A DNA stretch of 64,000 nt from Candidatus Omnitrophota bacterium. GTDB lineage: Bacteria > Omnitrophota > Gorgyraeia > JAGLLT01. A program made the position numbers and the translations under genes. The stretch is from assembly GCA_023140385.1 (NCBI GenBank), contig JAGLLT010000018.1:6071-70070 (forward strand), read 5' to 3'. Below are positions 5,428 to 45,049 of the stretch, piece by piece; the stretch's first letter is position 1, and each line of letters begins with the position of its first letter. Below the pieces are notes generated by a model that made no database searches, was not told where the DNA came from, and saw only the letters and a program-made list of their open reading frames with translations.

Positions 5428-5430
5428 TTT

Positions 5431-5456: not shown

Positions 5457-5565
5457 ATGTTGATAGTTTGACATAATCCGTCCAATATTGATTAAATGTA
5501 CCTAAAATAAATAATCAAAAAAAACAAATGGCCAGACCACTGGGTATATTATTTGAAGGAGCATA

Positions 5566-5902: not shown

Positions 5903-5931
5903 TTGACACTTACCTTATTATAATATATAAT
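5903..5931 (+). promoter_or_regulatory. Sigma70-type promoter TTGACA-17-TATAAT upstream of lysS
   Basis: TTGACA at 5903-5908, a 17-nt spacer, TATAAT at 5926-5931. The RBS AAGGAGGGG lies at 5939-5947 and the ATG at 5957. Confidence 0.6.
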
Positions 5932-5956
5932 CACCAGTAAGGAGGGGTTTATTTGA

Positions 5957-14208: not shown

Positions 14209-15885
14209 ATGAAACTACTGTTCAGGGATAGGATTTTAATAAAGTTTATTTTACTTTCTCTCTTTACTCTAACTATAATTCTTTATCTGGCTTCAAAGGA
14301 GAAGGAACTACTTGATGACTTTAAGTCTTATCTCGAAATAGAGATGAGGCAGGCCTTACTGCGTGAAGTAAAGATTAGCGGCATCAGCGGCGGGATATTT
14401 ACCCCCGTTGCTTTACAAGAAGTTAAAATTACTAATAGCTTGAATAACCCGGATACCTTTTTATTTATAAAACGGGTTGAGGTTAATAAGAGGATTTGGG
14501 ATCTGTTCTTTCTTAAAAAAGGCTTGCGGGGCACCTTGGTATTAAAGGTTGAAGATGCTTCCCTGTTTATCTTTGGCGGTATGGGCCCGAGGATAAAAAA
14601 TCAGAGCGGAGTAATAACTTTAGATAAAGATAAAGAGCTTCTTAGTATTAACCTGGCCAATGAGTTTTACAGTTTTACAGGCAAGGCGGCCAATATTTAC
14701 GGCACTCCTTTTCTTGATATGAAGTTACAGATTAACTCAAACTTTGTGAAGGGGGAGATTGGCATTGAGGGCAATCCAAACCTTCCCAGCATAACGGCTG
14801 ACCTGAATTTATTTGGACTGGTCTCCGCCACTTTTAATAATCTTGTTAGAATTGATGAGGAAAAAGTTTTCTTTGATAATCTGATACTCCAGGGGCAATA
14901 TTTTACCTCCGGAGAGATTGATTTAGAAAGGGGTGAAGTTGAGTTTAGCGTAACCCTGGACAATAATGAAAAAATAAACATTAGCTTTAAATCAATAGAC
15001 AACCTTAGTTACGCGGGGCTAATTGAAGTTAGCCATCTTAAGATTAAAGACACTGATGTAGACGTTAACTGTGAAATAAAAGTGGATGTAAGCAAAGGCG
15101 CGGACGGCGCGGTAGATAAAATCAAGGGAGAACTTAACACCAGTACCTTTATCGTCAACTATGAGCCCTTTGATGATATAAGCGCCGCTTTTACCCACAC
15201 TGAAGACAGTTTCGCGATAGACTATCTGAAGATAGGGGATAGTTTTGGCCTCCGGGGGCTTGTTTCATTTGATGAGCCGGAGACTGTCGATATGTTTTTT
15301 GAGCTTAAAGATTTCACGGTGGAAAATCTTTCGAGGTTTTCTTTTGTGCCGGACAACTTTAACTTTAAATCTACGATAAATGTTGAAGCGAACGTTAAAG
15401 GTGAGCCCGCGAAGCCCCATGTTAAAATTCACCTTACGTCTACCAAGGGCAATATGAATGATATTTTGTTTGACTCTATTATGATTACCCTAGAGGGGAA
15501 TTACCCTATTTTAAAGTATAGAGATTCGCGTATAAATAGAGGTGAGGGGTATTTACCTATGGCTGGCAAGGTGGATTTCAGGAAGATAAAGGCCGGCGGC
15601 CTTTTTGAGGATACGATTATAACATCCGATGAAGAAACGATTATTTGGGAGGGGTGGGATATTACCAAAAAGCAGTATGAGAAAGAGGTGAGCCTGCGTA
15701 AGTCGGTCAAGGAGGGGATAAGCGTTTTGTATAGAGGTTATCTGAATGATGAAACGCAGGCCGCGGATGATGACCACGAGGATACGATTGAGCTGGAATA
15801 CGGGATTTTGGAAAATCAGAGTTTAAAGATGAAATTAAAAAAAGATGAGGAGTTCTTCGGGCTTGAAAATAAGATCAGGTTTTAG
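14209..15885 (+). CDS. Membrane-anchored beta-rich protein, possibly AsmA/TamB-like
   Basis: 558 aa. One N-terminal TM helix, then a long hydrophilic region with low-complexity beta-strand-like repeats. It sits immediately upstream of mlaE. The family call is an inference. Confidence 0.35.
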   Translation: MKLLFRDRILIKFILLSLFTLTIILYLASKEKELLDDFKSYLEIEMRQALLREVKISGISGGIFTPVALQEVKITNSLNNPDTFLFIKRVEVNKRIWDLFFLKKGLRGTLVLKVEDASLFIFGGMGPRIKNQSGVITLDKDKELLSINLANEFYSFTGKAANIYGTPFLDMKLQINSNFVKGEIGIEGNPNLPSITADLNLFGLVSATFNNLVRIDEEKVFFDNLILQGQYFTSGEIDLERGEVEFSVTLDNNEKINISFKSIDNLSYAGLIEVSHLKIKDTDVDVNCEIKVDVSKGADGAVDKIKGELNTSTFIVNYEPFDDISAAFTHTEDSFAIDYLKIGDSFGLRGLVSFDEPETVDMFFELKDFTVENLSRFSFVPDNFNFKSTINVEANVKGEPAKPHVKIHLTSTKGNMNDILFDSIMITLEGNYPILKYRDSRINRGEGYLPMAGKVDFRKIKAGGLFEDTIITSDEETIIWEGWDITKKQYEKEVSLRKSVKEGISVLYRGYLNDETQAADDDHEDTIELEYGILENQSLKMKLKKDEEFFGLENKIRF

Positions 15886-22832: not shown

Positions 22833-24341
22833 ATGGCGCTTAAGATATATAACTCACTTATAAACAGAAAAGAAGAGTTTAAACCGATAGCGGCCGGTGA
22901 AGTTAAAATGTACGTTTGCGGAGTTACCGTCTATGATAAATGCCACATTGGCCATGCCAGGGGAGCCTTTGTTTTTGACGTAGTCAGAGATTATTTAACG
23001 TATAAAAGGTATGAAGTTACGTATGTCAAAAATATTACGGATGTAGACGATAAAATTATAAATAAGGCAGCTGAATTAGTTGAGGAGTATAAAAAGAAAG
23101 GTATTAATAAAACTCTTAACGAAGCCGTTGAAGAGATTACAGCCTGTTATATAGATGCTTATTATGAGGATATGGATGCTCTGGGTATTAAAAAGGCGGA
23201 TATTGAGCCCAGGGCCACAGAGCATATTGATGATATGATAAAGATGATCGAGGGGCTTATTGAAAAAGGGTATGCTTATGAAGTTGACGGTGATGTTTAT
23301 TTTGATGTAAAAAAATATAAAGATTATGGACAACTTTCCAATCAGAGCGTTGAAGAACTGCAGGAGGGAGTTCGCAAGGAAGTTGATAAGAAAAAGAGAA
23401 GCGCTCTTGATTTCGCGCTTTGGAAAAAGGTAAAAGAGCATGAACCCCATTGGCAGAGCCCTTTTTCGAATGGAAGGCCCGGCTGGCATTTGGAATGCTC
23501 TGCTATGAGTATTAAGTATTTGGGAGATAATTTTGATATACACGGGGGCGGCAGAGATCTTATCTTTCCTCATCATGAAAATGAAATTGCCCAGGCTGAA
23601 TGCTATACCGGCAAGCCCTTTGCTAATGTCTGGATGCATAACGGTTTGCTGACGGTTGAGGGGCAAAAAATGGCTAAGTCGCTGGGCAACTTTGTAACTA
23701 TCTCCGAGATTATCAAAAAATACCATCCTGAAACCCTGAAGCTTCTTTTTTTATTGAGCCATTACGCGAGCCCCGTAGATTTTACCTTTGAAAAAATGGA
23801 TGAGGCTCGTACAGCAAGAAAAAAATTTTACAGCCTGTTTGAGAAGATTGAGAATGTCCTTAAGGACGCCGGGCAGGCAGAAGAGGGCGCCGCGGCGGCC
23901 GAGGAAGCGGCATTGAAGAGGAGTCTGGATGATTGTGCCCGCGGGCTTGAAAAGGCAAGTCAGGGTTTTATCGAGGCTATGGATGATGACTTTAATACGC
24001 CGACGGCCTTGTCGCGCCTTTTTGACATAGTTAACCTGATAAATAAGTTTATCAGAGATGAAAGCGTCGCGCTTAAAGCTAAAGTCGCGATTTTAAAGTC
24101 TGCTAAGTTCACCTTGAAAGAATTTGGCGGCATCCTGGGACTTTTTCAAAAGGATGAAAAAAATGAGGCGGGTGAAGAAATGGAATTACTTAATAAAGTT
24201 ATGGCTATTATCCTTGATATAAGACAGAAGGCGCGGCAGGGTAAAAACTTTGAATTGTCGGACAGTATTAGAGAGCGCCTTGAAGACGCGGGCCTTATCT
24301 TAGAGGACGAGAAAGGTAAGACGGTCTGGAGGAAAAAGTAA
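22833..24341 (+). CDS. cysS: Cysteine--tRNA ligase
   Basis: Class I HIGH (CHIGHARG) and KMSKS (KMAKSLGN) motifs, plus zinc-site residues, in the CysS arrangement. Confidence 0.9.
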   Translation: MALKIYNSLINRKEEFKPIAAGEVKMYVCGVTVYDKCHIGHARGAFVFDVVRDYLTYKRYEVTYVKNITDVDDKIINKAAELVEEYKKKGINKTLNEAVEEITACYIDAYYEDMDALGIKKADIEPRATEHIDDMIKMIEGLIEKGYAYEVDGDVYFDVKKYKDYGQLSNQSVEELQEGVRKEVDKKKRSALDFALWKKVKEHEPHWQSPFSNGRPGWHLECSAMSIKYLGDNFDIHGGGRDLIFPHHENEIAQAECYTGKPFANVWMHNGLLTVEGQKMAKSLGNFVTISEIIKKYHPETLKLLFLLSHYASPVDFTFEKMDEARTARKKFYSLFEKIENVLKDAGQAEEGAAAAEEAALKRSLDDCARGLEKASQGFIEAMDDDFNTPTALSRLFDIVNLINKFIRDESVALKAKVAILKSAKFTLKEFGGILGLFQKDEKNEAGEEMELLNKVMAIILDIRQKARQGKNFELSDSIRERLEDAGLILEDEKGKTVWRKK

Positions 24342-24576
24342 CTTTTCCCACCATATTCTTTTCAAACTGCTAATCGGCAGCCGGTTGCGTATTTTAACAA
24401 CAAAATACTTCTAAAAGACAATTATTTACTCTTGACTTTATTTCTTGTATTGTGGTATATTAAATAAGTATTTTTTAGAGGTATAGGGGCGGACAAGAAA
24501 CGCCTTTTCCTGATGAAATATACATATTTTGCTAACCCGCTATCTTGTATAGATGACCGGCAGTGGTTACAACATC

Positions 24577-24605
24577 TTGACAAAGCAGCGGGGGTAGTGT
24601 ATATT
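24577..24605 (+). promoter_or_regulatory. Sigma70-type promoter TTGACA-17-TATATT about 130 nt upstream of the GGDEF gene (a second candidate is TTGACT-18-TATATT at 24432-24461)
   Basis: TTGACA at 24577-24582, 17-nt spacer, TATATT at 24600-24605. The predicted leader contains the hairpin CTGCCAAACAAAAGGCAG. Confidence 0.5.
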
Positions 24606-24734
24606 TATAAAAAAGTTAGGACTATAAAGTATTATATACTTTAATATTAACCGACTCCGCCAAACGACTGCCAAACAAAAGGCAGAGTAGTGGAAGTATT
24701 GTATTTAAAGGGGGTTGGGTAAAAGAGACGGACT

Positions 24735-26741
24735 ATGAAGAATAAGAAGATTATTTTAATTGAAGGCAAGGCGGGGGTTTCAGAAAAACTGCTGCCTTTA
24801 TTGGAAGAGCAGAATTGTGAGGTTTTTATAAGCAGAGAAGGCTTAAGCGGTATTCAGGACGTATATCAGCATAAACCCGACCTCATTTTTCTGGACTCGT
24901 CTATTGAAGATATTTCCGCTTTTCAGGTATGCACCTTTTTGAAGGATAAAGATGACTTTAAAGAGATACCCATTGTACTGTTAGGGGCAGATAAAGCGGA
25001 GGAGTTAAATTTTTTCAGAATTAAGGAAGGCGTTCTTGATTTTATTGATGTCTCACAGGACTTAGACTGGATAAATCAGCAGATTAAAGCCATTCTTGAC
25101 AAACATCAGGAGAGCCTCTTCGCGTCAAAGAGTTTTAAGCTCATCGAAGAACTTACTGAAAGCATTCGCCGGTTATCCGGCGGCGGCCAGGCGGATAATA
25201 CGGAAGAAGGAGCGCTGGCTGTGCTGTGTGAAGAGATAGTCTATAAGGTTACTTCAATTTTAAACTCCGAAGTGGGTTCTTTGATGATGATGGATGAAGC
25301 CGGCGGCCACCTTTTTATAAAAGCCGCCCGAGGATTAGATGAAGACGTAATAAATAACACCAGAGTAAAGCTGGGAGAGAAGGTATCCGGCTGGGTAGCC
25401 AAAAGAGGCAGGCCTGTTCTGGTGACTGATATAGAAAAAGATTCAAGGTTTCCTAAGGCAAGTAATGGCAGGTATTATACTAGCTCCTTATTAAGCGCTC
25501 CGCTTAATCTGGGAAGGCTAAAAGGAGTTATAAATGTTAATAATAAGACTACTAAAGAGCCTTATAATGAGAAAGACCTGGCTCTTTTAACGGCACTAAT
25601 AAAGCATCTCAGTTCTACCGCCGAAAACGTGGCCCTTTTTAAAGAACTCGCGGATAGAAACGAGAGGCTCGAGAAGTTAAGGTCGGATAAGAAGATATTG
25701 TCCGGGATTAACAAACTCCTTGATAAAGAACTTTATGATATTGGGATTTCATACGAAATAAATAAAATATTAAATTCCGATTTAGATTATAAGCAGACCA
25801 TAAGCGCGGTAATAGAGTTAATTGAAAGCAGTGTAGACTATCATTTTTGCGGGCTGCTGCTTTTAGATAATGTGCAGGAGGCGGAGCTGATGGTGAGCAT
25901 TAAGTATCCTGCCTCTGAATTTGACCTGGCCGCTTTTAAGGTTAAGACAATTGATACCTTTTATCAGGTATCCGGGTACAATATTCTGCTGGAGAGAATA
26001 GCTTTAAACAGGACTGCCGGGCCGGCTATACTGGTTGCCGAAGCAAAAAAGGATAAAGATGTTCTGAGCAGTTTTCATGCCATAGGATTGAATATAAAAA
26101 ATAAATGCCTGGGACTTTTGGCTGTGAGTCATTCCAGGCCGGAGGCATTCAGCCGTAAAGACCTGAAGCTTCTTTCTATGATTGCCGATCATTCGGTTTT
26201 GGCTATTAATAACGCAGCCTTACATAAGAGAATAAAAAAACTTTCAATAACAGATGGTTTAACGGGGCTTTATGTGTATAGGCATTTTCAGGACAGATTG
26301 GACGAGGAGATAAGGAGGGCCGGAAGATATCAGGAACAGCTTTCCATAATCCTTGTGGACATTGATGGGTTCAAGAGTGTCAATGATAACTTTGGCCATT
26401 TGGTGGGCGATGAGGTTTTAAAGGAGATAAGCCGGATCTTGCTAAAGGCTTGCCGTGAAGTTGATGTAGTTGCCCGTTACGGCGGGGATGAGTTCGCGGT
26501 AATTTTGCCGCAGACCGATAAGGAAGGGTCGTTTTACGTGGCAGAGAGAATAAGGAAGGCAATAAAAGGTAATAACTTCAAATCGCGCGCCCCAGAGCCG
26601 ATTAATTTAACGGTGAGCTGCGGAGCGGCATCGTTTGGTGAATCCGTGAAGGAAAGGGACGTTCTTATCAAAAAGGCCGACGACGCTTTATACCAGGCGA
26701 AAAATGAAGGTAAGAACAAGACGGCGCTAAATCAAGTATAA
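24735..26741 (+). CDS. Response-regulator receiver + GAF + GGDEF diguanylate cyclase
   Basis: 668 aa. N-terminal REC-like domain (phospho-acceptor DSS region), central GAF-type domain(s), C-terminal GGDEF domain with an intact GGDEF motif (ARYGGDEFAVIL) and an upstream RxxD-like I-site. Confidence 0.8.
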   Translation: MKNKKIILIEGKAGVSEKLLPLLEEQNCEVFISREGLSGIQDVYQHKPDLIFLDSSIEDISAFQVCTFLKDKDDFKEIPIVLLGADKAEELNFFRIKEGVLDFIDVSQDLDWINQQIKAILDKHQESLFASKSFKLIEELTESIRRLSGGGQADNTEEGALAVLCEEIVYKVTSILNSEVGSLMMMDEAGGHLFIKAARGLDEDVINNTRVKLGEKVSGWVAKRGRPVLVTDIEKDSRFPKASNGRYYTSSLLSAPLNLGRLKGVINVNNKTTKEPYNEKDLALLTALIKHLSSTAENVALFKELADRNERLEKLRSDKKILSGINKLLDKELYDIGISYEINKILNSDLDYKQTISAVIELIESSVDYHFCGLLLLDNVQEAELMVSIKYPASEFDLAAFKVKTIDTFYQVSGYNILLERIALNRTAGPAILVAEAKKDKDVLSSFHAIGLNIKNKCLGLLAVSHSRPEAFSRKDLKLLSMIADHSVLAINNAALHKRIKKLSITDGLTGLYVYRHFQDRLDEEIRRAGRYQEQLSIILVDIDGFKSVNDNFGHLVGDEVLKEISRILLKACREVDVVARYGGDEFAVILPQTDKEGSFYVAERIRKAIKGNNFKSRAPEPINLTVSCGAASFGESVKERDVLIKKADDALYQAKNEGKNKTALNQV

Positions 26742-26754: not shown

Positions 26755-28284
26755 ATGAAAAAAATAAAATTTATGGCAGGGTTGGTTTTCTTTTTAGTTT
26801 TTTGCTTTTTGGAAACACCGGTTATCCGCGCGGACGGTGGTTTAGTATCCATAGAGGCGGAGGATGAGGAGATTTCTGATGTCTTATACTCAATTGCCGA
26901 AGATAATAACTTAAATCTGGTTGTCGGTAAGAACATAAGCGGCAGGGTAACGGTTAAGCTTGACAGTGTTCCCTTAGAAGATGCCCTGAGGGCAATTTTA
27001 CAGCCGAATAGTTATACCTATACTATTGACGGGGATATGGTTACCGTTTACAGTTATGGTGAATTTCAGCAGCACGAGAGATTCAGCCCTCTGGTAACTA
27101 AGGTTTTTACCCTGGAGAACATTGAGGTCTCCTCCCTAAGACGAGCCTTTTTATCTATGAAGACAACCAGGGGAAGAATGGAGCTGAACTTATTGGGCAA
27201 TCAGGTAATTATAACGGATACTAAGGATAGGATAAAACAGCTAGAGAAGGCTTTAAAGGAGATGGATGTTAAGAGGGACTTTAAAAAGTATAAGCTGAAT
27301 TATGCTAAGGCCGCGGATGTTATAGGAAAATTGACCCAGATTATTTCAGAAGACAGGGGCGACGTATTTTTAGATGAAAGAACCAATAGCATTGTAATCA
27401 GGGCCGCGGGCCCTCTGCTTCAGAATATTGATGAGTTGATTGAAGGATGGGATGTACAGCACAAGCAGGTTTTGATTGAAGCGAAAATCTTAGAGGTAAC
27501 CTTAAATAAGAACAAAAAGCTGGGCATTAACTGGGAGTATGATACACCTGATTCCGCCCGGCGGGGAGAACCCGCCCAGTGGGACCTGAGGGGAGATTTT
27601 TCTCAGAACCTGACCTCGGGAGGGATCTTTCAGGTTGGCACTTTGACCGCTGATGATTATCAGATAACGCTGGAGATGCTGGAGAGTCACAGTGATACTG
27701 AAGTTCTTTCAAGTCCCAGGATTGTTGTTATAGACAACCATGAAGCTAATATTTTGGTCGGCAGTGAAGAGCCCTATATAGTTACTTCCACAGATCCTGA
27801 CACCGGCTGGATATTTGAAGAGACAAAGTTTAAAGATGTGGGTTTGAAATTAGTGGTAACCCCCCAAATAGATGAGAATGATTATGTTACAATGACTATC
27901 CATCCCGAGGTAAGCACCGCCAGGCGGGTGGCTGAGGTATCCAATGCTTTAGCTATAGACACGACCCAGGCCGATACGACTCTGATGGTTAAAAATGGAG
28001 AAACGGTTGTCTTGGGAGGGTTAATGAAGGATACGCGCTCTAAGACGGTAAAAAAGGTACCTCTTTTAGGCGACATTCCTATTCTCGGATACTTGTTCAG
28101 AAGCACAGAAGAGGAGGATAAAAAAACTGAAATAATTGTTTTTATTACTCCCCATATATTAACTGATGACAATCGGCAGTCTGTTTCCCGCGAGAGAATT
28201 AAGGGTGTAGCTGAAAGGACAAATACCACCTTTGATCTGCTTGATGAAGGTGTGCAATTTGAACAGGAAGAACGACTCCAGTAA
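26755..28284 (+). CDS. Secretin (PilQ/GspD family) with a PilQ-like N0 domain
   Basis: Signal peptide. N0-like domain (ISDVLYSIAEDNNLNLVVGKNISGRVTVKLDSVPLEDALRAIL). Secretin_N-like domain. C-terminal secretin domain with the VPLLGDIPILGYLFR signature. Confidence 0.8.
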   Translation: MKKIKFMAGLVFFLVFCFLETPVIRADGGLVSIEAEDEEISDVLYSIAEDNNLNLVVGKNISGRVTVKLDSVPLEDALRAILQPNSYTYTIDGDMVTVYSYGEFQQHERFSPLVTKVFTLENIEVSSLRRAFLSMKTTRGRMELNLLGNQVIITDTKDRIKQLEKALKEMDVKRDFKKYKLNYAKAADVIGKLTQIISEDRGDVFLDERTNSIVIRAAGPLLQNIDELIEGWDVQHKQVLIEAKILEVTLNKNKKLGINWEYDTPDSARRGEPAQWDLRGDFSQNLTSGGIFQVGTLTADDYQITLEMLESHSDTEVLSSPRIVVIDNHEANILVGSEEPYIVTSTDPDTGWIFEETKFKDVGLKLVVTPQIDENDYVTMTIHPEVSTARRVAEVSNALAIDTTQADTTLMVKNGETVVLGGLMKDTRSKTVKKVPLLGDIPILGYLFRSTEEEDKKTEIIVFITPHILTDDNRQSVSRERIKGVAERTNTTFDLLDEGVQFEQEERLQ

Positions 28285-28286: not shown

Positions 28287-29894
28287 ATGCCAAATCCCGC
28301 GCAAAAAACACAAGTTACCGTAAAAGATTATCTCCTTATAATATTTCTGCGTAAGAAATTTTTTCTCCTTCCCTTTTTAATTGTCTTTTTTACCGCTTCT
28401 ATCGGAAGTTTTTTTATGCCTAAGTATTACCGTTCAGCGGTAATGGTGAAGGTGGAAGATAAAAAGCCGGTTAATCCTTTAGCGGTGCCGGAAAGAAGGG
28501 GCACGACTGATGAAGATAAAACCTTAGTTGAAAAAATGAGAACTCTTACAGAAGAAATCTTAAGCTACCACCGCTTAATTTTTTTAATAAATGAATTGAA
28601 TCTTCGGGAAAGTCTTGGCAGTATTTCAACTACTACGGAGTCGCTAATTACAGCTTTAAGAAAAAGCATAAAAGTCAAGATGATATCCCCTGAAATTTTC
28701 CTGGTCTCTTATGAAGATAAAGATCCCCAGCAGGCAAAGGATGTCGTTAATAGGTTAGTGGGGATATTTATCGATGAGCAGATTAAGCAAAAAGAAGAAG
28801 AGGCCATGGCCGGAGTTGAGTATGCCGAGTCTGAGGCCGAACTTTATAAAGAAGAACTTGAAAAGGCGGAAGAAAAATTTAAGAAGTACAGAGAAAAACA
28901 CGCCTTGCAGCTGCCGGGTAGAGAGCTTGATATGAACGTTGACATTCTGGTCAGCTATGAGCTTCAGCTAACCAGTTTAAGAATGGACCAAAAGAACCTG
29001 CAGGAAGAAATTAACAAGATAAAGAGGCAGTTGAGCGGCAGAGAAGCGGTAATTATCTCTGATGATATGCTTGATTTAAACCCTATAGTTATTGAACTTA
29101 ATAGAGATTTGCAGGAGCTGCGGCTCGCAATAGATAATCTTCTATTGAGTGACCCGGAGTCAGAAAAGATATATGAGCTTCAACAGGCCTTAGAAGATAC
29201 ACGCCGGCGCCTGCAGGAAGAGATAGAGAAGACGGTTAACGCGGAGACCATAGTCAGCGACCCCTTATTTTATCAGCGCCTGTCCCAACGCTTTAAAGGC
29301 GCCGATCAGAGAATGAATGAGCTAAAGGATAGAGAGAGCGAGTTAACGCGGCTGAAGGAGATGTATGAGAAGAGGATAAAGACCCTGCCCGCACAGGAAG
29401 CGGAGTATAGCCGTTTGGGCAGGGACGTTGAGCTAAACAGCCAGTTATACAGGTCTCTCCGGATAAAGGCGGAAGAAGGCCGCCTGACAGCAGAGGAACT
29501 AAAGAAAATAGGTATTAATTATGAGTTGATAGAAGAAGGCCGTCTTCCTCTCAAGGCCTCCAAGCCGAAAAAGCTGTTAATTACTGTAGTTTCTTTACTT
29601 TTGGGTGTTATGTCGGGCTTTGGCTGTGTGTTTCTGGCAGAGTTTTCAGACCGCTCCTTTAAAAGTACCGAAGATGCCATTGGCTATATGGAAATACCGT
29701 GCCTGGGCTCTGTGTCCAAGATAATGACACGGGGTGAGCTAGCTTCCAGAAGGAGAAGAGAAAGAAGCGCCGCTATCCTGATTGTATGTTTAGCAGTTAT
29801 ACTAATTACCGCCGGTATAGTGTCAACCTATAAAGAAAATGAAGAGGTAAGATTGAAAATTGCCGAGCAGGAAAAACTTGAAGAAGCTGATTAA
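28287..29894 (+). CDS. Polysaccharide co-polymerase / chain-length determinant (Wzz/GumC/EpsF-like PCP)
   Basis: 535 aa. N-terminal TM, long coiled-coil periplasmic region, second TM near the C-terminus, short cytoplasmic tail. It starts 3 nt after the secretin stop. Confidence 0.65.
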   Translation: MPNPAQKTQVTVKDYLLIIFLRKKFFLLPFLIVFFTASIGSFFMPKYYRSAVMVKVEDKKPVNPLAVPERRGTTDEDKTLVEKMRTLTEEILSYHRLIFLINELNLRESLGSISTTTESLITALRKSIKVKMISPEIFLVSYEDKDPQQAKDVVNRLVGIFIDEQIKQKEEEAMAGVEYAESEAELYKEELEKAEEKFKKYREKHALQLPGRELDMNVDILVSYELQLTSLRMDQKNLQEEINKIKRQLSGREAVIISDDMLDLNPIVIELNRDLQELRLAIDNLLLSDPESEKIYELQQALEDTRRRLQEEIEKTVNAETIVSDPLFYQRLSQRFKGADQRMNELKDRESELTRLKEMYEKRIKTLPAQEAEYSRLGRDVELNSQLYRSLRIKAEEGRLTAEELKKIGINYELIEEGRLPLKASKPKKLLITVVSLLLGVMSGFGCVFLAEFSDRSFKSTEDAIGYMEIPCLGSVSKIMTRGELASRRRRERSAAILIVCLAVILITAGIVSTYKENEEVRLKIAEQEKLEEAD

Positions 29895-29927: not shown

Positions 29928-30701
29928 ATGGATAATTTTTCAGAATCGATAAAAAGAGCGGCTGAAGATAGAGAGCAGATGCTGAAGAAAAGCCGAATCG
30001 CGCCCACTTCGGTGGTGCGGGCCAAAGATGGCTCAGGTATAGACGCGAGAGTCGTTACCTATCACAGCCCGAAGTCAAACATAGCCGAAAATTACAGAGG
30101 CATTTTTACCCATCTTAAAAATGCTTCAGAAAAGCTTAACGCTAAGGTAATCGCTATTGTCAGCTCCTCTCTTAACGAAGGCAAGAGTATTACGGCTGTT
30201 AATTTGTCGGTGATTATGGCGGCAGATTTTGGGAAAAAGGTTTTATTGCTTGACTGTAACTTAAGAAGCCCGCGAATAGACGAGTTGTTAAATATAAATG
30301 CCCAAGGCGGCCTTTCAGAGATCTTATCTGATAACTTAACTTCTAAGGCGGCTGTAAAGCCTACGGGGATTAACAATCTTTTCGTAATAACCGCGGGCAA
30401 AGAGGCCGGTAGTCCGGTTGAGCTGTTACATAGTCAAAAACTGCCGCGGTTATTAAAAGAATTGAGAGCGGAGTACGATTATATAATTATTGATACAGCG
30501 GCAGTTATTCCTTATTCTGATTTTAAAGTAATGGCGCCCTGGATAGACGCGGCGGCCCTGGTTGTTAGGGTTCATAAGACTTCGCGCGAGGTAATAACGA
30601 GGGCAGAGGCTATGTTGAAGGAGTTAAGAATTAACGTTCTTGGTTTTATGCTCACGGACGTTGAATATTACATTCCGGACTTTATATATCGTCACCTTTG
30701 A
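29928..30701 (+). CDS. BY-kinase-type tyrosine autokinase (CpsD/CapB-like P-loop ATPase)
   Basis: Walker A-like SSSLNEGKS, Walker A' LLLDCNLRSP, Walker B DYIIIDTAAV, and a tyrosine-rich C-terminus (EYYIPDFIYRHL). Confidence 0.7.
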   Translation: MDNFSESIKRAAEDREQMLKKSRIAPTSVVRAKDGSGIDARVVTYHSPKSNIAENYRGIFTHLKNASEKLNAKVIAIVSSSLNEGKSITAVNLSVIMAADFGKKVLLLDCNLRSPRIDELLNINAQGGLSEILSDNLTSKAAVKPTGINNLFVITAGKEAGSPVELLHSQKLPRLLKELRAEYDYIIIDTAAVIPYSDFKVMAPWIDAAALVVRVHKTSREVITRAEAMLKELRINVLGFMLTDVEYYIPDFIYRHL

Positions 30702-30759
30702 TTGTCTGTACTTTTAAATACCTTAAGAAGAGGCGAAGGAGGCAGATAATGTTTGTATT

Positions 30760-30797
30760 AACCAAAATCCAAAGGTAGTGGGTTTTGGTTTTTTTAA
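30760..30797 (+). terminator. Possible rho-independent terminator after the BY-kinase gene
   Basis: Inverted repeat AACCAAAA...TTTTGGTT followed by TTTTTTT. The stem is AT-rich, so it is weak. Confidence 0.35.
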
Positions 30798-30847
30798 TAA
30801 AGTCCAAATTTACATAATAAAGTGATGGGTTTGTAAGGGAAAGAATA

Positions 30848-32278
30848 ATGAAAACTATCCAAAGAATCGCGAAAAATACGGCTATTTTAACTGCGGCTGA
30901 GATAGTAAATAAAGCCTTATCTCTATTTTTATATATTGCCATTGCTAATTATTTAAGAGCCGCCGGCTATGGCCGGTTTTCGTTTATTATAGCGCTTTTG
31001 GCCCTCTTCCAAGTGCTGGCAAACTTTGGCCTTAATAAACTGATTATCAGAGATGTGGCCAAAAATAAAGAGATAACCCGCGCTTACGTATCTTTTATGA
31101 TGAAGCTTAAAGCCTTTTTTTCGTTAAGCGCGTATCTTATTTTTATTTTATCTGTTTGTTTGATGAAAAAACCACCGGAAGTTATTTTCGGGGCGTATTT
31201 GATAGGCCTCTCAATGATATTTATCAGCCTATCCAACGTTTATCTGTCTGTTTTTAATGCTCACGAGAAACTGGAAATAAATGCCATCTCTTTGATTTTA
31301 GTAAAGATAGTCATTGTGGGACTGGTAATTCTATTTATTAGCTTAAAAGGAAGCCTCTTGCTTATTTTGGGCGCCTTTGTCGCCGGCGAGGCTTTGAGAC
31401 TATTGGTACTTTGGCTGGTTTATGATAAAAGTTTTAAGTGTAAACTTTCAGAAGAAGTTGTTAAATTATCAGTAAAGAGGATTGTAAAAACTGCTTTCCC
31501 GTTTGTCCTGGCAGGAGTCGCCTCTTTGATATATATGCATGTCGATAAGATTATGATTTCTGTTATCAAAGGAGATAAAGCTGTCGGCTGGTATAGCGCC
31601 GCCTATACCCTTATCGTAGGGTTAATGTTTATTCCGCGCTGCTATACTCTTTCCGTTTTTCCCGCTATCTCTCGTTACGCGAAAAGTTCCAAGAGGCTAT
31701 TGAGTATTTCCTGGCAAAGATCAGTCAAATATCTTTTGATTATCTCTTTACCTATCGCGGCCGGCGTATTTATTTTAGCTGAGAGGTTTATAAATATTTT
31801 ATACCATAGCGGCTATGAAAATAGTACCGTTGCTTTAAAAATATTAATACTGGCTATACCATGGATTTTTGTAAATTCGATAAATATTTATTTGTTGTAC
31901 GCGGCAAATTTTCAAAAGCGGGCAATGTTTATAATTCTGGCCAGCGCTCTTTTAAACATAGTTTTAAATTTCATTTTTATTCCGCGTTTTAGTTATATAG
32001 GTGCCGCCTGGGCAACAGTTTTGGCGGAAGTTGCCAATAGCCTGATGCTCTTTATTTTTATATACACAGGTATGAATTTAAGAATAGAGATTCAGAACAC
32101 GCTTATTAAGCCGCTGGTAGCCGCCTTTTTTATGGGGACACTGATTTATTATTTCAGATCAGGTAACCTGATAATAATTATTGTGACGGCATCTATTTTA
32201 TACGCGGGCGCGCTTACTTTACTAAGGACATTTGATAGAGAAGATAGGGATATAGTAAAAAAAATAATTACGGCATAA
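30848..32278 (+). CDS. Oligosaccharide flippase (Wzx/MOP superfamily polysaccharide biosynthesis protein)
   Basis: 476 aa with about 12-14 TM segments. Conserved N-terminal motif of PST/Wzx-family flippases (KNTAILTAAEIVNKALS...YGRFSFI). Confidence 0.65.
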   Translation: MKTIQRIAKNTAILTAAEIVNKALSLFLYIAIANYLRAAGYGRFSFIIALLALFQVLANFGLNKLIIRDVAKNKEITRAYVSFMMKLKAFFSLSAYLIFILSVCLMKKPPEVIFGAYLIGLSMIFISLSNVYLSVFNAHEKLEINAISLILVKIVIVGLVILFISLKGSLLLILGAFVAGEALRLLVLWLVYDKSFKCKLSEEVVKLSVKRIVKTAFPFVLAGVASLIYMHVDKIMISVIKGDKAVGWYSAAYTLIVGLMFIPRCYTLSVFPAISRYAKSSKRLLSISWQRSVKYLLIISLPIAAGVFILAERFINILYHSGYENSTVALKILILAIPWIFVNSINIYLLYAANFQKRAMFIILASALLNIVLNFIFIPRFSYIGAAWATVLAEVANSLMLFIFIYTGMNLRIEIQNTLIKPLVAAFFMGTLIYYFRSGNLIIIIVTASILYAGALTLLRTFDREDRDIVKKIITA

Positions 32279-32324
32279 GGATACTTGCAATTAAATTATC
32301 TTTAAATAAATTTAGAATGAAAAG

Positions 32325-33797
32325 ATGAAAATTATTAAAGGCTTAATGGATAATAAAGGAACCTTAGCACAGAAAACAGCCAGAGGCGGGATCTGGGTAT
32401 TCGGCTCTTTTTTCTTTGCCAAGGTACTATTTTTTATCAGAACGGTTATTCTGGCCAGACTTCTCATCCCTAATGATTTTGGGATGATGGGCATTGCTAT
32501 TCTTGCAATGACAGGTATGCAGGTACTTACCGAGACCGGAATTGATCAGGCGATAATTCAAAAGAAAGGAGTTACCAAAGACGCACTTGATACCGCCTGG
32601 GTTATATCTGTTGCGCGCGGAATTATACTTTTTATCGTTCTCTATTTGTTATCTCCAGCTATTGCCGCTTTTTATAATAATCTTATGCTTGAACCTTTAC
32701 TAAAAGTGCTCTCTATTTCTTTTCTTTTTTTGGGGTTACAAAATATCGGTGTTGTCTTTTTTCAAAAAGAGTTAAACTTTAAAAAAAGAGCTTTGTTTAC
32801 CACTGCAACAGACGTTATAAATATAATTTTTACCGTGTTATTCGCGGTAATTCTAAAAAATGTTTGGGCTGTGGTAATTGGTTGTGTTGTCGGTAATTTG
32901 GCGAAGCTGATTATATCATATCGGATTCAAGCTTTTCGTCCTTGTTTTAAATTTAATCCGAAAGCTGCTAAAGAGTTACTGAAATTTGGAAAGCACGTTT
33001 TTGGGGCAAGCGTAATGATTTTTTTCGTTACTCAAGGAGATGATGCTTTGGTTGGTAAGATGTTAGGATTAGAAGCGCTTGGTTTATATGTTTTAGCCTA
33101 TAGCTTGTCCAATATGCCAACAACGGCGATTACGCATGTTATTTCCCAGGTGAGCTTTCCGGCCTATTCAAAAGTGCAGGATGACACTAAAAGGCTTGGG
33201 AGAGGGTACTTAAAAATATTAAAGTTTACCGCGTTATTAACTATACCCTTGGCAGCCGGACTTTTTATTTTGGCTCCCGAATTTATAAAGATAGTATACG
33301 GTGAAAAATGGCTGCCTATGCTTCCCGCGGTTTTGATTATGTGTTTCCTGGGTTTTTTCCGCGCCATCGGAGCGACGATGGGACCTGTTTTCTTTGCGGT
33401 TGGTAAACCGCACATCCAGCACAAGATAAAGTTATGTGAGTTGATAACAATGATTGTAATTATCTATCCGTTAATAAAGATGTTTGGCATCGTTGGCGCC
33501 GCCCTGGCCGGCACATTTGTCTATTTCTTAAGCTTAATATTGCATTATAATAATCTCATTAAAGTTATTAAGGGCATAAAACTTGAAATTTTTAAAACTA
33601 TAAGCAAGCCCTTAGTTTTGAGTTTACTGATGGCGGTTTTTATCTTTTTGCTAAAAAAGCACTTTCTTATATGTATAAATTTAAGCGGTTTATTTTTTCT
33701 CTCTATAGTTGGCTTAGTTTTTTATACAGCCTCAATCTTTTTTATTGATAAAGAGGGAATTGAATTTATGAAAACAACGATTAAACTTATCAAGTAA
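32325..33797 (+). CDS. Second Wzx-like flippase (MOP superfamily)
   Basis: 490 aa polytopic membrane protein. N-terminal motif and topology of the PST family (LAQKTARGGIWVFGS..., ...LGLEALGLY...). Confidence 0.65.
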   Translation: MKIIKGLMDNKGTLAQKTARGGIWVFGSFFFAKVLFFIRTVILARLLIPNDFGMMGIAILAMTGMQVLTETGIDQAIIQKKGVTKDALDTAWVISVARGIILFIVLYLLSPAIAAFYNNLMLEPLLKVLSISFLFLGLQNIGVVFFQKELNFKKRALFTTATDVINIIFTVLFAVILKNVWAVVIGCVVGNLAKLIISYRIQAFRPCFKFNPKAAKELLKFGKHVFGASVMIFFVTQGDDALVGKMLGLEALGLYVLAYSLSNMPTTAITHVISQVSFPAYSKVQDDTKRLGRGYLKILKFTALLTIPLAAGLFILAPEFIKIVYGEKWLPMLPAVLIMCFLGFFRAIGATMGPVFFAVGKPHIQHKIKLCELITMIVIIYPLIKMFGIVGAALAGTFVYFLSLILHYNNLIKVIKGIKLEIFKTISKPLVLSLLMAVFIFLLKKHFLICINLSGLFFLSIVGLVFYTASIFFIDKEGIEFMKTTIKLIK

Positions 33798-33809
33798 AAG
33801 GAATATATA

Positions 33810-35207
33810 ATGAAGTATGATTTAGAAGAACGTCCTCTAATTGAGTTTTCCGGCTTAGTAACGTTTTTTATAATTTTCTTTTCACTGGCCTTTGGAGTTA
33901 GCTTTTTATTCTTACCGTGGTATGTAGTTTTGGTTCTATTTACCGGGTTTGCTATTACTATAGGAATTGTGTTTAATCCGTTCATTGGTGTTCTGCTTTT
34001 TTTAGTAACTACATATGTTCATGTTATGGCTTTTGCTCCTGTCGAGCTTATTAAATCGCAGCCGGCAGTTATGGCAGGCGGCATTGTACTGCTTGCCTGG
34101 CTTTTTCATCTTATTATTTACAAAGATTTTAAGCTACCCAGGTCTCCGCAGTTTTTATGCGTGATTGGCCTTACTCTTATGGGGTTTTTTTCCGTAATTT
34201 TTCATTTAAACGAATACGAAAACTTTTTTTTGGTTTTTCATTTTATTAAGATGTTAATACTGTACTTTTTGGTAACTAACTTGATAAAAACCGAAAAGCA
34301 GTTATACGTTTCACTTACTGTAATATTAATATTAACTTTCGGTACCGCCCTTTCCGGCGTTATGCAGTATTTACAGAGCGAAGCAACTATAGAGGTTGAT
34401 AGAGTCGCGGGTTTTGAAGGCAACCCGAATGCCCTGGCAATAAATTTAGTTTTTATAATTCCCTTTATCGTAGGCCTTATTCAATATTTTTCCTCTTTGA
34501 AATTAAAAGCATTGCTCTTGTGCGTTTTTCTTATTGTATTATCTGGTATTGTTTTTACATTTTCCCGGGCGGGCTTTCTCGCTCTGGCTGTGGTTTTTCC
34601 GATAAGTTTATGGAGATTTTCGAAGAGGCGGAATAGAATATGGCTGATAATAGTGTTTATTGTTTTTCTTGGCCTATTGATTCCTTTTTTACCTGAGCAG
34701 TACTGGGAAAGAATTCAGTCAATAACTGATTTTAGCGATGTAAGTATTATTGGCAGGCTGGATAGTTATCGTATCGGCTGGCAAATGATAAAAGATAATC
34801 CCTTTCTTGGAATTGGCCCGGGAAGATGGGCTTATAAGTATGTAGCTTACGCGGCAAAACTAATAGGAATTACAACTTATAACTGGTGCCCTTTTAATGT
34901 ATTTATTGAAACAGGAGCGGAAAACGGCCTCTTTGCTTTAGGATTCTATGTTTTTATTATCTTTTTCTCATTTAAAGAACTGAATAAGGCTAAGATTATT
35001 TTTGAAAAGAAGGGCAAGTTATTGCTATCAAAAGCATCGCAAGCTTTTTCAATAACCTTAATTGGATTTTTGGTAAATACAATCTTTGAAGCGGGACTGG
35101 GATTAAAAGTGTTTTGGATTATTGCAGGGCTTTCTGTTGTACTTAAAGAGGTCGCTTTAAATTTAGAACTTAATACTTCAATTAATACTTTTAAAACGAA
35201 TGGATAA
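33810..35207 (+). CDS. O-antigen ligase / Wzy-like polymerase family protein (exosortase-associated O-glycosylation-ligase-like)
   Basis: 465 aa multi-TM protein with the Wzy_C-type loop motif (FTFSRAGFLALAVVF...GIGPGRW...H). Confidence 0.65.
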   Translation: MKYDLEERPLIEFSGLVTFFIIFFSLAFGVSFLFLPWYVVLVLFTGFAITIGIVFNPFIGVLLFLVTTYVHVMAFAPVELIKSQPAVMAGGIVLLAWLFHLIIYKDFKLPRSPQFLCVIGLTLMGFFSVIFHLNEYENFFLVFHFIKMLILYFLVTNLIKTEKQLYVSLTVILILTFGTALSGVMQYLQSEATIEVDRVAGFEGNPNALAINLVFIIPFIVGLIQYFSSLKLKALLLCVFLIVLSGIVFTFSRAGFLALAVVFPISLWRFSKRRNRIWLIIVFIVFLGLLIPFLPEQYWERIQSITDFSDVSIIGRLDSYRIGWQMIKDNPFLGIGPGRWAYKYVAYAAKLIGITTYNWCPFNVFIETGAENGLFALGFYVFIIFFSFKELNKAKIIFEKKGKLLLSKASQAFSITLIGFLVNTIFEAGLGLKVFWIIAGLSVVLKEVALNLELNTSINTFKTNG

Positions 35208-36372
35208 AATAAATATTGCGCACATAACAACTCCCAGGAGGGATCAACTTTCAGGCTCTGATAGAGTAATTTTGTCTATTTTATCAAAGTCAGACAAGAA
35301 AAAATTTAATCATATTGTTTTCTGTTTAACGCACAGGGAAAATAAAGGGTACTTATTAATTGAAGAAGTAAAAAAAATAGGCGCAACGGTAGAGACAATA
35401 ATTTTAAAATGGCGGTTTGACATAAGAGCTTTTTGTATATTAAGAAGTTTATTAAAGAAATATAACATTAGTATTTTGCAGACTTATGAGTATAAAAGTA
35501 ATTTTATAGCTTTATTTTCAACTTTTTTTATCAAGGCTAAAAAAATTGCCCGCATCGGCGGCTGGTTAGGCTTTGGCTTAAGTATTAAGAGTTGTAACTT
35601 AGATAGAAAAGCCTTTATTTATGAGTTGATAGATTCTTTTGTGAGAAAATGTTTTGATAGAGTTGTTGTTGTGTCGACAGAAATTAAAGATAAACTTGTA
35701 GCTCAGAGGTGTGCAAAAGATAAAATAGTTTTAATACATAATGGTACTGATTTGGATGAATACTATCAAAATTCAGCTGATTCAACAAATGTAAAAAAGA
35801 CCTTAAGCATTAAATCCGGCGCTAAGATTATAGGTACGATAGGCCGCCTGACAATTGAAAAGGGGCACAGGTATTTACTGGAGGCAGCCGTTGAGGTGCT
35901 GCAAAAATACCCCGATGCAAAATTTGTTATTGTAGGTGAAGGTGAACTCAAGCGCGCATTATTTGACTACTCGAAAAAGTTGGGAATTGAACACAGTATA
36001 ATTTTTACAGGTTTTTCTGAAAATGTGGGTAAATATTTGTCTATTATGGACATCTTCGTTTTTCCGTCCATATGGGAAGGTTTTGGGATAGTGGTGATTG
36101 AGGCGATGGCCGCCGGCATTCCGGTAATTGCTACTAAAGTGGGAGGCATCCCTGATATTATAGAAAACAACGAAACTGGTATTTTGGTGGAAGCTAAAAA
36201 TTCACCGCAACTAACCAAGGCGATAAACCTGTTATTGTCAGATGGGGAAAAATGTGAATTTTTTAAAAATAACGCAAAAAAAATTGTTAGAGATAAATTC
36301 TCCTCAAAAGTAATGATAGAAAAATATGAAGAAATGTATAACAATCTTGTAGCGACCTATGGAAATATTTAA
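35200..36372 (+). CDS. Glycosyltransferase family 4 (GT-B)
   Basis: C-terminal GT4 motif FVFPSIWEGFGIVVIEAMAAGIPVIATKVGGIPDII with the E-x7-E motif. Confidence 0.8.
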   Translation: MDKINIAHITTPRRDQLSGSDRVILSILSKSDKKKFNHIVFCLTHRENKGYLLIEEVKKIGATVETIILKWRFDIRAFCILRSLLKKYNISILQTYEYKSNFIALFSTFFIKAKKIARIGGWLGFGLSIKSCNLDRKAFIYELIDSFVRKCFDRVVVVSTEIKDKLVAQRCAKDKIVLIHNGTDLDEYYQNSADSTNVKKTLSIKSGAKIIGTIGRLTIEKGHRYLLEAAVEVLQKYPDAKFVIVGEGELKRALFDYSKKLGIEHSIIFTGFSENVGKYLSIMDIFVFPSIWEGFGIVVIEAMAAGIPVIATKVGGIPDIIENNETGILVEAKNSPQLTKAINLLLSDGEKCEFFKNNAKKIVRDKFSSKVMIEKYEEMYNNLVATYGNI

Positions 36373-37477: not shown

Positions 37478-37504
37478 TGCAAATATAGTTACCAACAGGA
37501 GAGA

Positions 37505-39790: not shown

Positions 39791-39837
39791 CATTTCAGAT
39801 ATTAAGCGAAGAGCATTGTTTTTATTATTGCGGGAGA

Positions 39838-41082: not shown

Positions 41083-41141
41083 AGGGAGGCCTCTAATTCA
41101 AATATTTGCGCAAAATTTAGAATTTGAATTAGCGGAGTATT

Positions 41142-42128: not shown

Positions 42129-42133
42129 AAAGT

Positions 42134-43120: not shown

Positions 43121-43138
43121 ATTAAAACAAAGCGGGAA

Positions 43139-43942: not shown

Positions 43943-43991
43943 TTAACACAATTTTTGTGCTAAAAATGTAAATTGAAAAAAAGTTTTATAA

Positions 43992-45029: not shown

Positions 45030-45049
45030 TTTATGGTCGGTGGGAAACT

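Follow-up and report, generated by a model that had tools for sequence, protein, structure and literature searches.

A predicted diguanylate cyclase-led operon for secretin-based polysaccharide export in Omnitrophota and the composite region upstream of it

Does a diguanylate cyclase gene in front of polysaccharide export genes belong with those genes, and what is the long non-coding region that precedes it? This question is raised by a 64,000-nt stretch of DNA from a Candidatus Omnitrophota bacterium (contig JAGLLT010000018.1 of GCA_023140385.1, positions 6,071 to 70,070; hereafter the window, numbered from its first letter). An initial annotation had placed the cyclase directly upstream of an exopolysaccharide (EPS) locus and had read the non-coding region as one long leader that might carry a regulatory RNA element. 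Cyclases beside polysaccharide genes are common, which made the finding as first stated an ordinary one. We compared the locus with those of its relatives, and the reading that we favour, at a probability of about 0.6, is that the cyclase leads an export operon, that cyclic di-GMP (c-di-GMP) stimulates assembly or export of the polymer and that the upstream region is composite. Judging from the alignments, most of the apparent leader is a remnant left by the loss of an adjacent gene and not a regulatory RNA.

The cyclase and the four-gene export operon

The comparison covered about 40 Omnitrophota loci with cyclases 40-93% identical to that of the window. Sixteen loci from genomes and 22 from metagenomes were fetched with a domain-specific alignment (A2), and several more were added by exact protein look-up. 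The named relatives are metagenome-assembled genomes (MAGs) of Candidatus Omnitrophota, with a few labelled 'uncultured bacterium' or 'uncultured Planctomycetia'. The window itself equals contig DAOWFJ010000039.1 of MAG GCA_030638025.1 save for one synonymous base at 30967 (GGC in the window, GGT in the MAG contig from GenBank; at this base, ENA scaffold L002 agrees with the window). The proposed operon consists of the following parts.

24577-24605, + strand: promoter P2, TTGACA-17-TATATT, matching 11 of 12 consensus positions; the predicted promoter of the cyclase operon
24612-24734, + strand: predicted 5′ untranslated region (UTR) from P2, about 123 nt, its start placed from the -10 element
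24735-26741, + strand: diguanylate cyclase of 668 amino acids (aa), identified by Pfam domains, an AlphaFold2 model and motifs
26755-28284, + strand: secretin with STN, Secretin_N and Secretin domains (Pfam Secretin, 172 bits)
28287-29894, + strand: polysaccharide co-polymerase (PCP, chain-length determinant), like that of XrtA systems (TIGR03007, 224.7 bits, cut-off 278.85; Pfam GNVR)
29928-30701, + strand: BY-type tyrosine autokinase (TIGR01007, 133.3 bits, cut-off 108.05)
30760-30797, + strand: predicted intrinsic terminator, AACCAAAAUCC...GGGUUUUGGUU followed by U7, with a 12-bp stem (-13.8 kcal/mol, z = -3.5)

The secretin, PCP and kinase genes follow the cyclase gene, which confirms its annotated place directly upstream of EPS export genes. 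The annotated spacing of 13 nt was also correct, with 26741 as the last base of the cyclase stop codon and 26755 as the first of the secretin ATG. Gene callers start the secretin at ATG 26773, and only the start at 26755 gives the signal peptide a basic n-region. Against the PilQ and GspD models, the secretin scored about 284 bits each, at or under the cut-offs. The kinase reached 147.1 bits with TIGR03018, under the cut-off of 230.65, and it has a Walker A (EGKS), Walker A′ (LLLDCNLR) and Walker B motif (IIIDTA) and a C-terminal tyrosine cluster (EYYIPDFIY).

The order cyclase, secretin, PCP and kinase is kept in every locus long enough to show all four genes. The cyclase and secretin open reading frames (ORFs), like the other neighbours, abut or overlap in most of the roughly 40 loci, down to a cyclase identity of 40%. 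Full-length relatives of the cyclase were seen in a secretin-export context only. At the upstream end, TTGACA-N17-TAnnnT is found 99-191 nt 5′ of the cyclase start in 29 of 30 orthologous loci. At the downstream end, the first sizeable gap past the cyclase (30702-30847) holds the terminator, and the element ACCAAAAUCC...GGRUUUUGG-U6-8 stands 3′ of the kinase gene in 16 of the 18 loci examined, in all clades. A scan of the window found no terminator in the 13-nt gap or in any other intergenic gap before the end of the kinase gene. The initial annotation had named a strong terminator between the cyclase and the EPS genes as evidence against its proposal; none separates the cyclase from the three export genes, and the terminator comes only after the fourth gene.

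Taken together, these results strongly support a predicted operon that runs from P2 (24577) through a UTR of about 123 nt, the cyclase, secretin, PCP and kinase genes to the terminator at 30760-30797. The cyclase and the three export genes are very probably co-transcribed, and the four genes are best read as one transcription unit, apart from the flippase and glycosyltransferase genes of the locus. The cyclase is composed as follows.

24741-25103, + strand (aa 3-123): pseudo-receiver (Response_reg, a marginal 34.8 bits against a cut-off of 30.2)
25206-25625, + strand (aa 158-297): GAF1 (Pfam GAF, 64-73 bits)
25629-25775, + strand (aa 299-347): coiled coil, a 49-residue helix in the AlphaFold2 model
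25788-26234, + strand (aa 352-500): GAF2, divergent (Pfam GAF_2 in family members)
26247-26729, + strand (aa 505-665): GGDEF domain (PF00990, 154.1 bits, cut-off 23.8; TIGR00254, 181.5 bits, cut-off 37.4)
26454-26465, + strand: I-site RxxD (R574-E-V-D577), five residues upstream of GGDEF
26481-26495, + strand (aa 581-587): RYGGDEF motif, read from the sequence

The protein had been described as REC-GAF-GGDEF. These three domains are present, but a second, divergent GAF domain had been overlooked and the receiver is degenerate, so that the architecture is pseudo-receiver, GAF, coiled coil, GAF and GGDEF, which is more than a plain REC-GAF-GGDEF protein. The most conserved stretch of the cyclase is aa 330-500, which has no Pfam call in the window protein. 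The Pfam GAF_2 model matched there in 10 of 10 family members tested (best E = 2.7e-10), and a profile of GAF2 members matched the solved GAF domain 3ci6 (E = 9e-4). The AlphaFold2 model (mean predicted local distance difference test score 78.5) has a REC domain, a GAF domain, the helix of aa 299-347, a GAF-like domain and a GGDEF domain, and its top Foldseek matches are IsPadC, PleD and WspR. Against the PleD model NF007135, the cyclase scored 197 bits (cut-off 474).

The GGDEF motif is intact, as the initial annotation had stated. In an alignment of 17 full-length orthologues (41-93% identity), R574, D577, R581, G583, G584, E586 and F587 are invariant, and likewise D542, D544, K547, N550 and D551; by comparison with PleD, we assign probable metal- and GTP-binding roles to invariant residues. 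These results strongly support a soluble diguanylate cyclase that is predicted to be active, with its active site and its product-inhibition site intact. It is a fresh member of a very large family. The receiver has E-G as its acidic pair, Gly or a variable residue in place of the conserved Thr, and no Lys; its acceptor residue is Asp in the window and Tyr or Asn in 6 of the 17 orthologues. Lacking the acidic pocket, Thr and Lys, and with an acceptor Asp that is not conserved, the receiver is unlikely to switch the cyclase by phosphorylation. No histidine-kinase domain was found among the window ORFs scanned, a scan that covered all but a few small ORFs.

The region between cysS and the cyclase gene

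The gap between cysS and the cyclase gene (24342-24734) measures 393 nt and contains no ORF with a coding signature, which bears out the annotated non-coding region of about 390 bp. Since the identical cyclase protein with the same 393-nt gap also occurs in three other metagenome assemblies, and the gap is thus common to four independent assemblies, an assembly deletion is unlikely. In addition to P2 and its UTR, we assigned the following features.

22833-24341, + strand: cysS, cysteinyl-tRNA synthetase (Pfam tRNA-synt_1e, 434 bits), outside the system
24371-24396, + strand: terminator-like hairpin and T-run 3′ of cysS, with a 7-bp stem and the tail CGTATTTTAA
24413-24461, + strand: promoter P1, with the box AAAAGACAA (24413-24421), a -35 element TTGACT (24432-24437) and an extended -10 element TGGTATATT (24453-24461)
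24462-24576, no strand assigned: probable scar of a deleted PEP-CTERM single-gene operon (alignment A3)
24668-24685, + strand: leader hairpin CTGCC-AAACAAAA-GGCAG
24699-24722, + strand: possible 7-codon upstream ORF (TTG TAT TTA AAG GGG GTT GGG TAA), in frame and 36 nt upstream of the cyclase start

Conservation within this region was measured against L005 alone, the relative at 93%; the neutral reference was the four-fold degenerate sites of the flanking genes, which are 79-80% identical between the two. The hairpin after cysS folds weakly (-7.5 kcal/mol, z = -1.0) and is 93-100% identical to L005. P1 (TTGACT-18-TATATT, 24432-24461) matches 10 of 12 consensus positions and carries a TGn extension, and P1 and P2 are the two best matches of a consensus promoter scan. 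The raw number of promoter-like sites was in itself unremarkable (12, compared to 6.4 ± 3.0 in shuffled sequences). We took conservation in orthologous loci as the evidence for the promoters, and by this measure both near-consensus sigma70 promoters that had been annotated at 24432 and 24577 are real.

In most relatives, cysS and the cyclase are separated by a gene of about 218 aa that has a promoter and a terminator of its own (L007, L008, L010, L012, L013, L027-L030, L032 and L049-L051), and its product ends in a PEP-CTERM sorting signal (PF07589, 28-30 bits, cut-off 20.7). Such a single-gene-operon layout is described for PEP-CTERM genes (PMC1569441). In alignment A3, the window and L005 are gapped over the entire 218-aa gene of L010, L007, L013, L028 and L032, and in L009 and L052 the gene is lost and its terminator retained. 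The segment 24390-24485, which includes P1, aligns with the promoter of the PEP-CTERM gene in L010, L007, L049 and L051, with scores of 43-54 compared to shuffle means of 19-22 (standard deviation 2.5-3.0). The P1 motif (AAAAGNCAA-N-TTGAC; AAAAGCAA-N10-12-CTTGAC) occurs once in the window, where 0.04 occurrences are expected. In about 500 kb of related loci, it lies almost only 5′ of a PEP-CTERM gene or of the cyclase, and in a distant clade it is the cyclase's own promoter. The promoter alignment, the gapped gene and the placement of the motif in relatives lead us to infer that P1 is the promoter of the deleted PEP-CTERM gene. Between P1 and P2, the scar would hold a remnant 5′ UTR, a decayed Shine-Dalgarno sequence TAGAGGTATAG (about 24478-24488), which is aligned to AGGAGGTGTAAG, the Shine-Dalgarno sequence of the PEP-CTERM gene, and decayed 3′ and terminator remnants, with the deletion junction at about 24510.

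The idea that P1 is now a decaying relic, so that P1 and P2 form no functional tandem, draws on the loss of the gene it served, on the decay of the remnant Shine-Dalgarno sequence and start codon, and on 24462-24492, just 3′ of P1, which evolves at the neutral rate. Opposed to this is a run of 60 nt, 24387-24446, that is 100% identical to L005 (p ~1.5e-6 at the neutral 79-80%), as well as the sister clade, where the cyclase operon is under the direct control of a P1-type promoter, in some cases paired with a second promoter (L022, L024, L038, L039). We thus consider a non-functional P1 improbable; the identity to L005 argues that P1 is kept by purifying selection and is not decaying. P1 probably now acts in tandem with P2, and some sister-clade loci likewise have two promoters.

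The 84 nt between the promoters at 24492-24575 are about 92% identical to L005, compared to 80% at neutral sites (p ~0.003), and may bind a regulator of P2. The substitution pattern of this segment is non-coding, and it includes an AT-only inverted repeat, AAATAT-AC-ATATTT. Two further candidates in the region were rejected. An ORF at 24513-24644 (43 aa) has 4 non-synonymous and 1 synonymous difference to L005 and runs through P2. A short RNA from P1 that ends at the hairpin of 24485-24510 is unlikely, as the hairpin consumes its own U-run and the stretch is neutral; in L005, this hairpin has one compensated and one broken pair. Directly 3′ of cysS, the L007 subclade has a second P1-type promoter (AAAAGCAA...CTTGACA...TAAACT), followed by 100-200 nt without annotation (L007:4784-4975, L028:2084-2294, L032:685-894, L013:5899-6075) and then by the promoter of the PEP-CTERM gene; a small ORF or RNA is possible there.

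With P1 assigned to the deleted gene, the single long leader proposed by the initial annotation shrinks to the roughly 123 nt past P2. Within this UTR, 24612-24660 is identical to L005 only at the neutral level, and 24666-24706 is 93% identical, compared to 80% (p ~0.02). The annotated stable hairpin at 24668-24685 was recovered: in a 36-nt context it folds with -11.0 kcal/mol (z = -3.4), and none of 200 shuffled sequences folded equally well. By eye, and with no statistical support, CTGC...GCAG hairpins occupy the same place in 6-7 of 8 leaders. Their inner stems differ between lineages and their loops measure 8-19 nt; they are present in L005, L009, L052, L049, L035 and approximately L010, and not in L033. 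The outer stem is invariant in sequence and thus shows no covariation. For the whole leader, the minimum free energy is -27.1 kcal/mol with an unremarkable z of -1.8, and the start region is unpaired in that fold.

A regulatory RNA in the leader, as the initial annotation had suggested, might take the form of a riboswitch, of an attenuator or of a hairpin bound by a protein, in the leader from P2 or in the whole 270 nt from P1. A UTR of above-average length, the CTGC...GCAG hairpin in most leaders of clade A1 and the conservation of 24666-24706 beyond the neutral level would fit such an element. The sister clades, whose cyclases are 40-48% identical to that of the window, add an example from the family itself: their leaders have a near-invariant terminator-like hairpin, GGAGCC-N8-14-GGCUC(C/U)-U5-7, 15-35 nt before the start codon, which could be an attenuator or a small RNA. 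A covariance model built from this sister-clade element (R1) recovered the clade-B and L051 leaders at 49-69 bits. In contrast, it gave no match in 24342-24734 (filters off, E <= 10) or in any clade-A leader; a leader attenuator may thus exist in the family, and the window leader lacks it. A search of 24200-24900 with 4227 Rfam families (E <= 10) gave chance-level hits only, and at the gathering score only tRNAs and chance hits were found in the window and 12 related loci. RNAalifold returned 0 consensus pairs for 8 clade-A1 leaders, in a MAFFT alignment of these AT-rich leaders that is poor enough for a short hairpin to escape. A scan of 24612-24734 found no hairpin with a U-run, and the window hairpin, having no U-run, is no terminator. 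Given this, the mostly neutral evolution of the leader, its modest z and the absence of covariation in the outer stem, we regard a regulatory RNA as very unlikely, slightly more so than a defunct P1.

The sister-clade hairpin lies at L016:6995-7025, L043:6995-7025, L051:7965-7995 and in 13 other loci, and an AT-rich hairpin of variable sequence stands 5′ of it. Rfam gave no match there. In the sister-clade leader of L037 (2610-2735; also in L036), an extra insert of about 110 nt separates the terminator-like hairpin from the promoter; this insert has three strong complementary segments, CCATCC/GGATGG, GTCCTTCC/GGAAGGGAC and GGACCTTAC/GTAAGGGTCC, and no Rfam match at the gathering score. The upstream ORF of the window leader is a low-confidence candidate for a conserved one (M-Y-L/F...). 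Six of 8 clade-A1 leaders have a GTATTTA anchor 33-34 nt before the cyclase start. The TTG of this ORF is, in L035 and P0010, the first codon of an N-terminal extension (MYFIELKEDVKIM) in frame with the cyclase; the ORF is absent in L049 and its frame is inconsistent in the L007 subclade. CsrA-type GGA motifs were also considered and set aside, being inconsistent among orthologues by eye.

CysS is the upstream neighbour in all clade-A relatives. The sister-clade operons are mostly downstream of tRNA-Cys and tRNA-Leu genes (L016, L017-L021, L023, L024, L026, L037-L039 and L043-L048). A distant-clade operon 3′ of tRNA-Cys and tRNA-Leu genes and a window-clade operon 3′ of cysS could be a coincidence. 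Taken together, the alignments and conservation strongly support a composite origin of the 393-nt region, which would consist of the cysS terminator, P1, the PEP-CTERM scar, P2 and the true leader.

The role of c-di-GMP and the exported product

Beyond the operon, the window holds the following genes that bear on the action of c-di-GMP and on the exported product.

30848-48242, + strand: the rest of the exopolysaccharide and exosortase locus, by profile annotation
46789-47628, + strand: exosortase (TIGR02602, 146.9 bits, cut-off 105.55; PF09721, 205 bits)
47601-48242, + strand: EpsI (TIGR02914, 85.6 bits, cut-off 42.8)
53315-53839, + strand (probable start 53390): stand-alone PilZ protein with intact RxxxR (RRQKR) and DxSxxG (DISLGG) motifs and a Cys-rich insert
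62066-63241, + strand: GAF-HD-GYP protein, a putative c-di-GMP phosphodiesterase (HHERYDGEGYPDG), with a promoter-like site at 61994-62025

The locus downstream of the kinase encodes two MOP flippases, a Wzy-like (PEP_O_lig-like) protein, glycosyltransferases of families GT4, GT9 and GT2, an epimerase, a methyltransferase, a WecA-like priming transferase and a tetratricopeptide repeat (TPR) protein. These gene contents strongly support the prediction that the cyclase operon opens a Wzx/Wzy-type exopolysaccharide locus that ends in an exosortase/EpsI pair. The XrtA-subtype models are the best-matching families for the exosortase, PCP and kinase, all of them under the cut-offs; the exosortase scored 172.8 bits with the XrtA equivalog (cut-off 208). 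Domain scans found no Poly_export/OPX (Wza) gene in 24735-48242. Because there is no Wza/OPX gene, the secretin is the sole candidate for the outer-membrane exit in the locus. No PrsK or PrsR regulator was found among the window ORFs scanned, and no sigma-54-like site on the + strand of 24342-24734; matches across the window were below chance. Unusual features are an exosortase setting that lacks the PrsK/PrsR sigma-54 system described for Proteobacteria, a secretin in place of Wza, and a strictly conserved four-gene unit with its own conserved promoter and terminator.

Under the favoured reading, the cyclase would be switched by signals sensed in its two GAF domains and not by phosphorylation, and the GGDEF dimer would receive the signal through the long helices of the coiled coil, as happens in other cyclases coupled in this way. 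Since the cyclase would be produced along with the envelope-spanning export proteins, the supply of c-di-GMP would follow the export machinery. The c-di-GMP would then stimulate polymer assembly or export post-translationally, via a receptor other than a PilZ, MshEN, or degenerate GGDEF or EAL domain within the operon. GAF1 of the cyclase and the GAF domain in the HD-GYP protein align over 129 aa with 52% identity (E = 1e-37). Because the two share this module, one signal could drive synthesis and breakdown of c-di-GMP in opposite directions.

Several points weigh against this reading. The initial annotation had proposed looking for c-di-GMP-binding motifs in the PCP, kinase and secretin, and no recognisable domain was found; PilZ, MshEN and degenerate GGDEF or EAL domains are absent from these three proteins and from the rest of the locus. 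Two Omnitrophota/PVC loci, L053 and L054, carry a secretin-PCP-kinase-flippase cassette with no leading cyclase. Because such cyclase-free cassettes exist, the export module does not need a dedicated cyclase. Read-through from P1 may give some mRNAs an effective leader of about 270 nt. In addition, the transcription starts, the extent of the operon and the efficiency of the terminator are predictions, and any function beyond domain content and conservation is deduced from these. The two cassettes (L053:7001-15533 and L054:7001-15491) consist of genes for a secretin, PCP, BY-kinase, flippase, GT4 glycosyltransferase and Wzy, and have no P1-type box and no terminator 3′ of the kinase gene. Among the matches listed, the secretin family numbers more than 120 clusters, compared to 18 full-length clusters for the cyclase family. 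The cyclase-free cassettes make the cyclase an accessory that a single subclade has gained, and no core component of the machine.

Both the missing receptor domain and the cyclase-free cassettes would also fit a cyclase that is co-expressed with the export genes, its product acting elsewhere (on the global pool, transcription factors, the PilZ protein or motility) and its adjacency reflecting co-regulation. The only canonical c-di-GMP receptor in the window is that PilZ protein, 25 kb off in a sugar-utilisation cluster. Against this stands the ancient and tight linkage of cyclase and secretin, kept to 40% identity, which is unexpected for a generalist cyclase, and the restriction of its full-length relatives to this one context. 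We find an action elsewhere possible and take it seriously, but doubt it. A different proposal concerns the cargo: the secretin cassette might export exosortase-processed PEP-CTERM glycoproteins and not polysaccharide, with the cyclase controlling protein secretion. Secretins are classically conduits for proteins or pili, and in most relatives a PEP-CTERM gene lies directly upstream of the cyclase and shares the P1-type promoter box specific to the locus. Mature PEP-CTERM proteins are also stated to reach the matrix by unknown secretory pathways, in a passage of a Geobacter paper that cites Haft et al. 2006 (PMC7726332). On the other side, the operon partners PCP and BY-kinase are polysaccharide-specific, the polymer would have no other exit given the absence of OPX/Wza from the locus, and the locus has no type II ATPase, platform or pseudopilin genes. 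The window moreover keeps the cassette with the adjacent PEP-CTERM gene gone and with no PEP-CTERM-tailed ORF found across its 64 kb, and secretins have a recent precedent in polysaccharide slime secretion (PMC12475490). Export of PEP-CTERM proteins by this cassette is thus unlikely, clearly more so than an action of c-di-GMP elsewhere, and local stimulation of polysaccharide export by c-di-GMP stays the reading that we prefer.

The PilZ gene lies directly 3′ of an AraC/PocR regulator gene (52488-53375), and the sugar-utilisation cluster around it includes a solute-binding protein (SBP) at 48424, a glycoside hydrolase of family GH94 at 49834 and one of GH35/42 at 53942. Three sizeable ORFs of the window have no Pfam or NCBIfam match (39838-41082, 45050-45922 and 14209-15885). 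Two of them are inside the exopolysaccharide locus, and that at 45050-45922 directly precedes the TPR, exosortase and EpsI genes. In L005, the first flippase gene is in two ORFs of 363 and 117 aa (L005:12059-13543), which may be a frameshift or an assembly error. The window has all its genes on the + strand and is densely filled, save for the stretches 2530-3954 and 5428-5956, which have no ORF of at least 120 aa and a lower G+C content (0.32-0.38).

Comparison with known systems

To our knowledge, Omnitrophota have no cultured, genetically tractable members. How c-di-GMP controls synthase-dependent polymers, among them cellulose, alginate, Pel and poly-N-acetylglucosamine (PNAG), is well understood. 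For Wzx/Wzy systems with BY-kinases this control is far less understood, and we know of no receptor there. In the literature, we found nothing specific on c-di-GMP or GGDEF genes in connection with exosortase loci, on secretins in connection with PEP-CTERM loci, or on this cassette. The locus is of interest since a conserved transcription unit would couple c-di-GMP synthesis to a secretin-based Wzx/Wzy export module. Its four genes, promoter and terminator make a compact, portable test case for the questions of the receptor and of the secretin as a polysaccharide conduit, and P1 offers a clean example of a promoter that appears to have outlived the gene it served. As a tentative proposal of wider reach, which we hold to be possible and no better than that, a secretin may have replaced Wza/OPX in Omnitrophota and joined the PCP and the tyrosine kinase in one machine, a large subclade may have gained a dedicated, non-phosphorylatable, GAF-sensing cyclase that gates Wzx/Wzy export via a new kind of receptor, and the box AAAAGCAA-N10-12-CTTGACA may define a regulon. 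If true, there would be a new receptor site, for example on the BY-kinase or the PCP, and the box would join exosortase substrates and the export operon in one regulon.

Leaders with c-di-GMP riboswitches and other leader RNAs resemble the locus in the long 5′ UTR before a c-di-GMP and exopolysaccharide operon, and differ in that the window leader has no Rfam match or conserved structure. The cyclase shares with PleD, WspR and IsPadC the N-terminal receiver fold, the GG(D/E)EF and RxxD motifs and long helices that join sensors to the GGDEF domain. Unlike in PleD and WspR, its receiver is degenerate, two GAF domains stand between receiver and GGDEF, and no partner kinase is nearby.

In the cellulose (BcsA-PilZ), alginate (Alg44), Pel (PelD) and Listeria Pss (with DgcA/B) systems, dedicated or nearby c-di-GMP enzymes and receptors control exopolysaccharide; these systems are synthase-dependent and have the receptor domain within the machine. 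The likeness to them is a cyclase genetically tied to a polysaccharide machine, which would imply local post-translational activation. In contrast, the system of the window is Wzx/Wzy-dependent, with a PCP, a BY-kinase and a secretin, and has no recognisable receptor. For cyanobacteria and myxobacteria, Zuckerman et al. (2025, PMC12475490) implicate secretins as nozzles for polysaccharide slime; there, too, a secretin of the PilQ/GspD family is tied to the release of a non-protein polymer. Those secretins are part of a type IV pilus or type II apparatus with no co-encoded PCP or BY-kinase, whereas the secretin of the window is encoded inside a Wzx/Wzy export operon.

With PEP-CTERM/exosortase (EpsH/XrtA) systems (Haft et al. 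2006, PMC1569441), the locus shares an exosortase, EpsI, an XrtA-type PCP and kinase, a PEP_O_lig-like Wzy, an stp2-like GT4 and a TPR protein. Compared to the proteobacterial exosortase systems, the locus lacks PrsK, PrsR and the sigma-54 motif, and has instead a sigma70-type promoter with the AAAAGCAA box, a secretin in the place of OPX/Wza and a diguanylate cyclase gene that heads the export operon.

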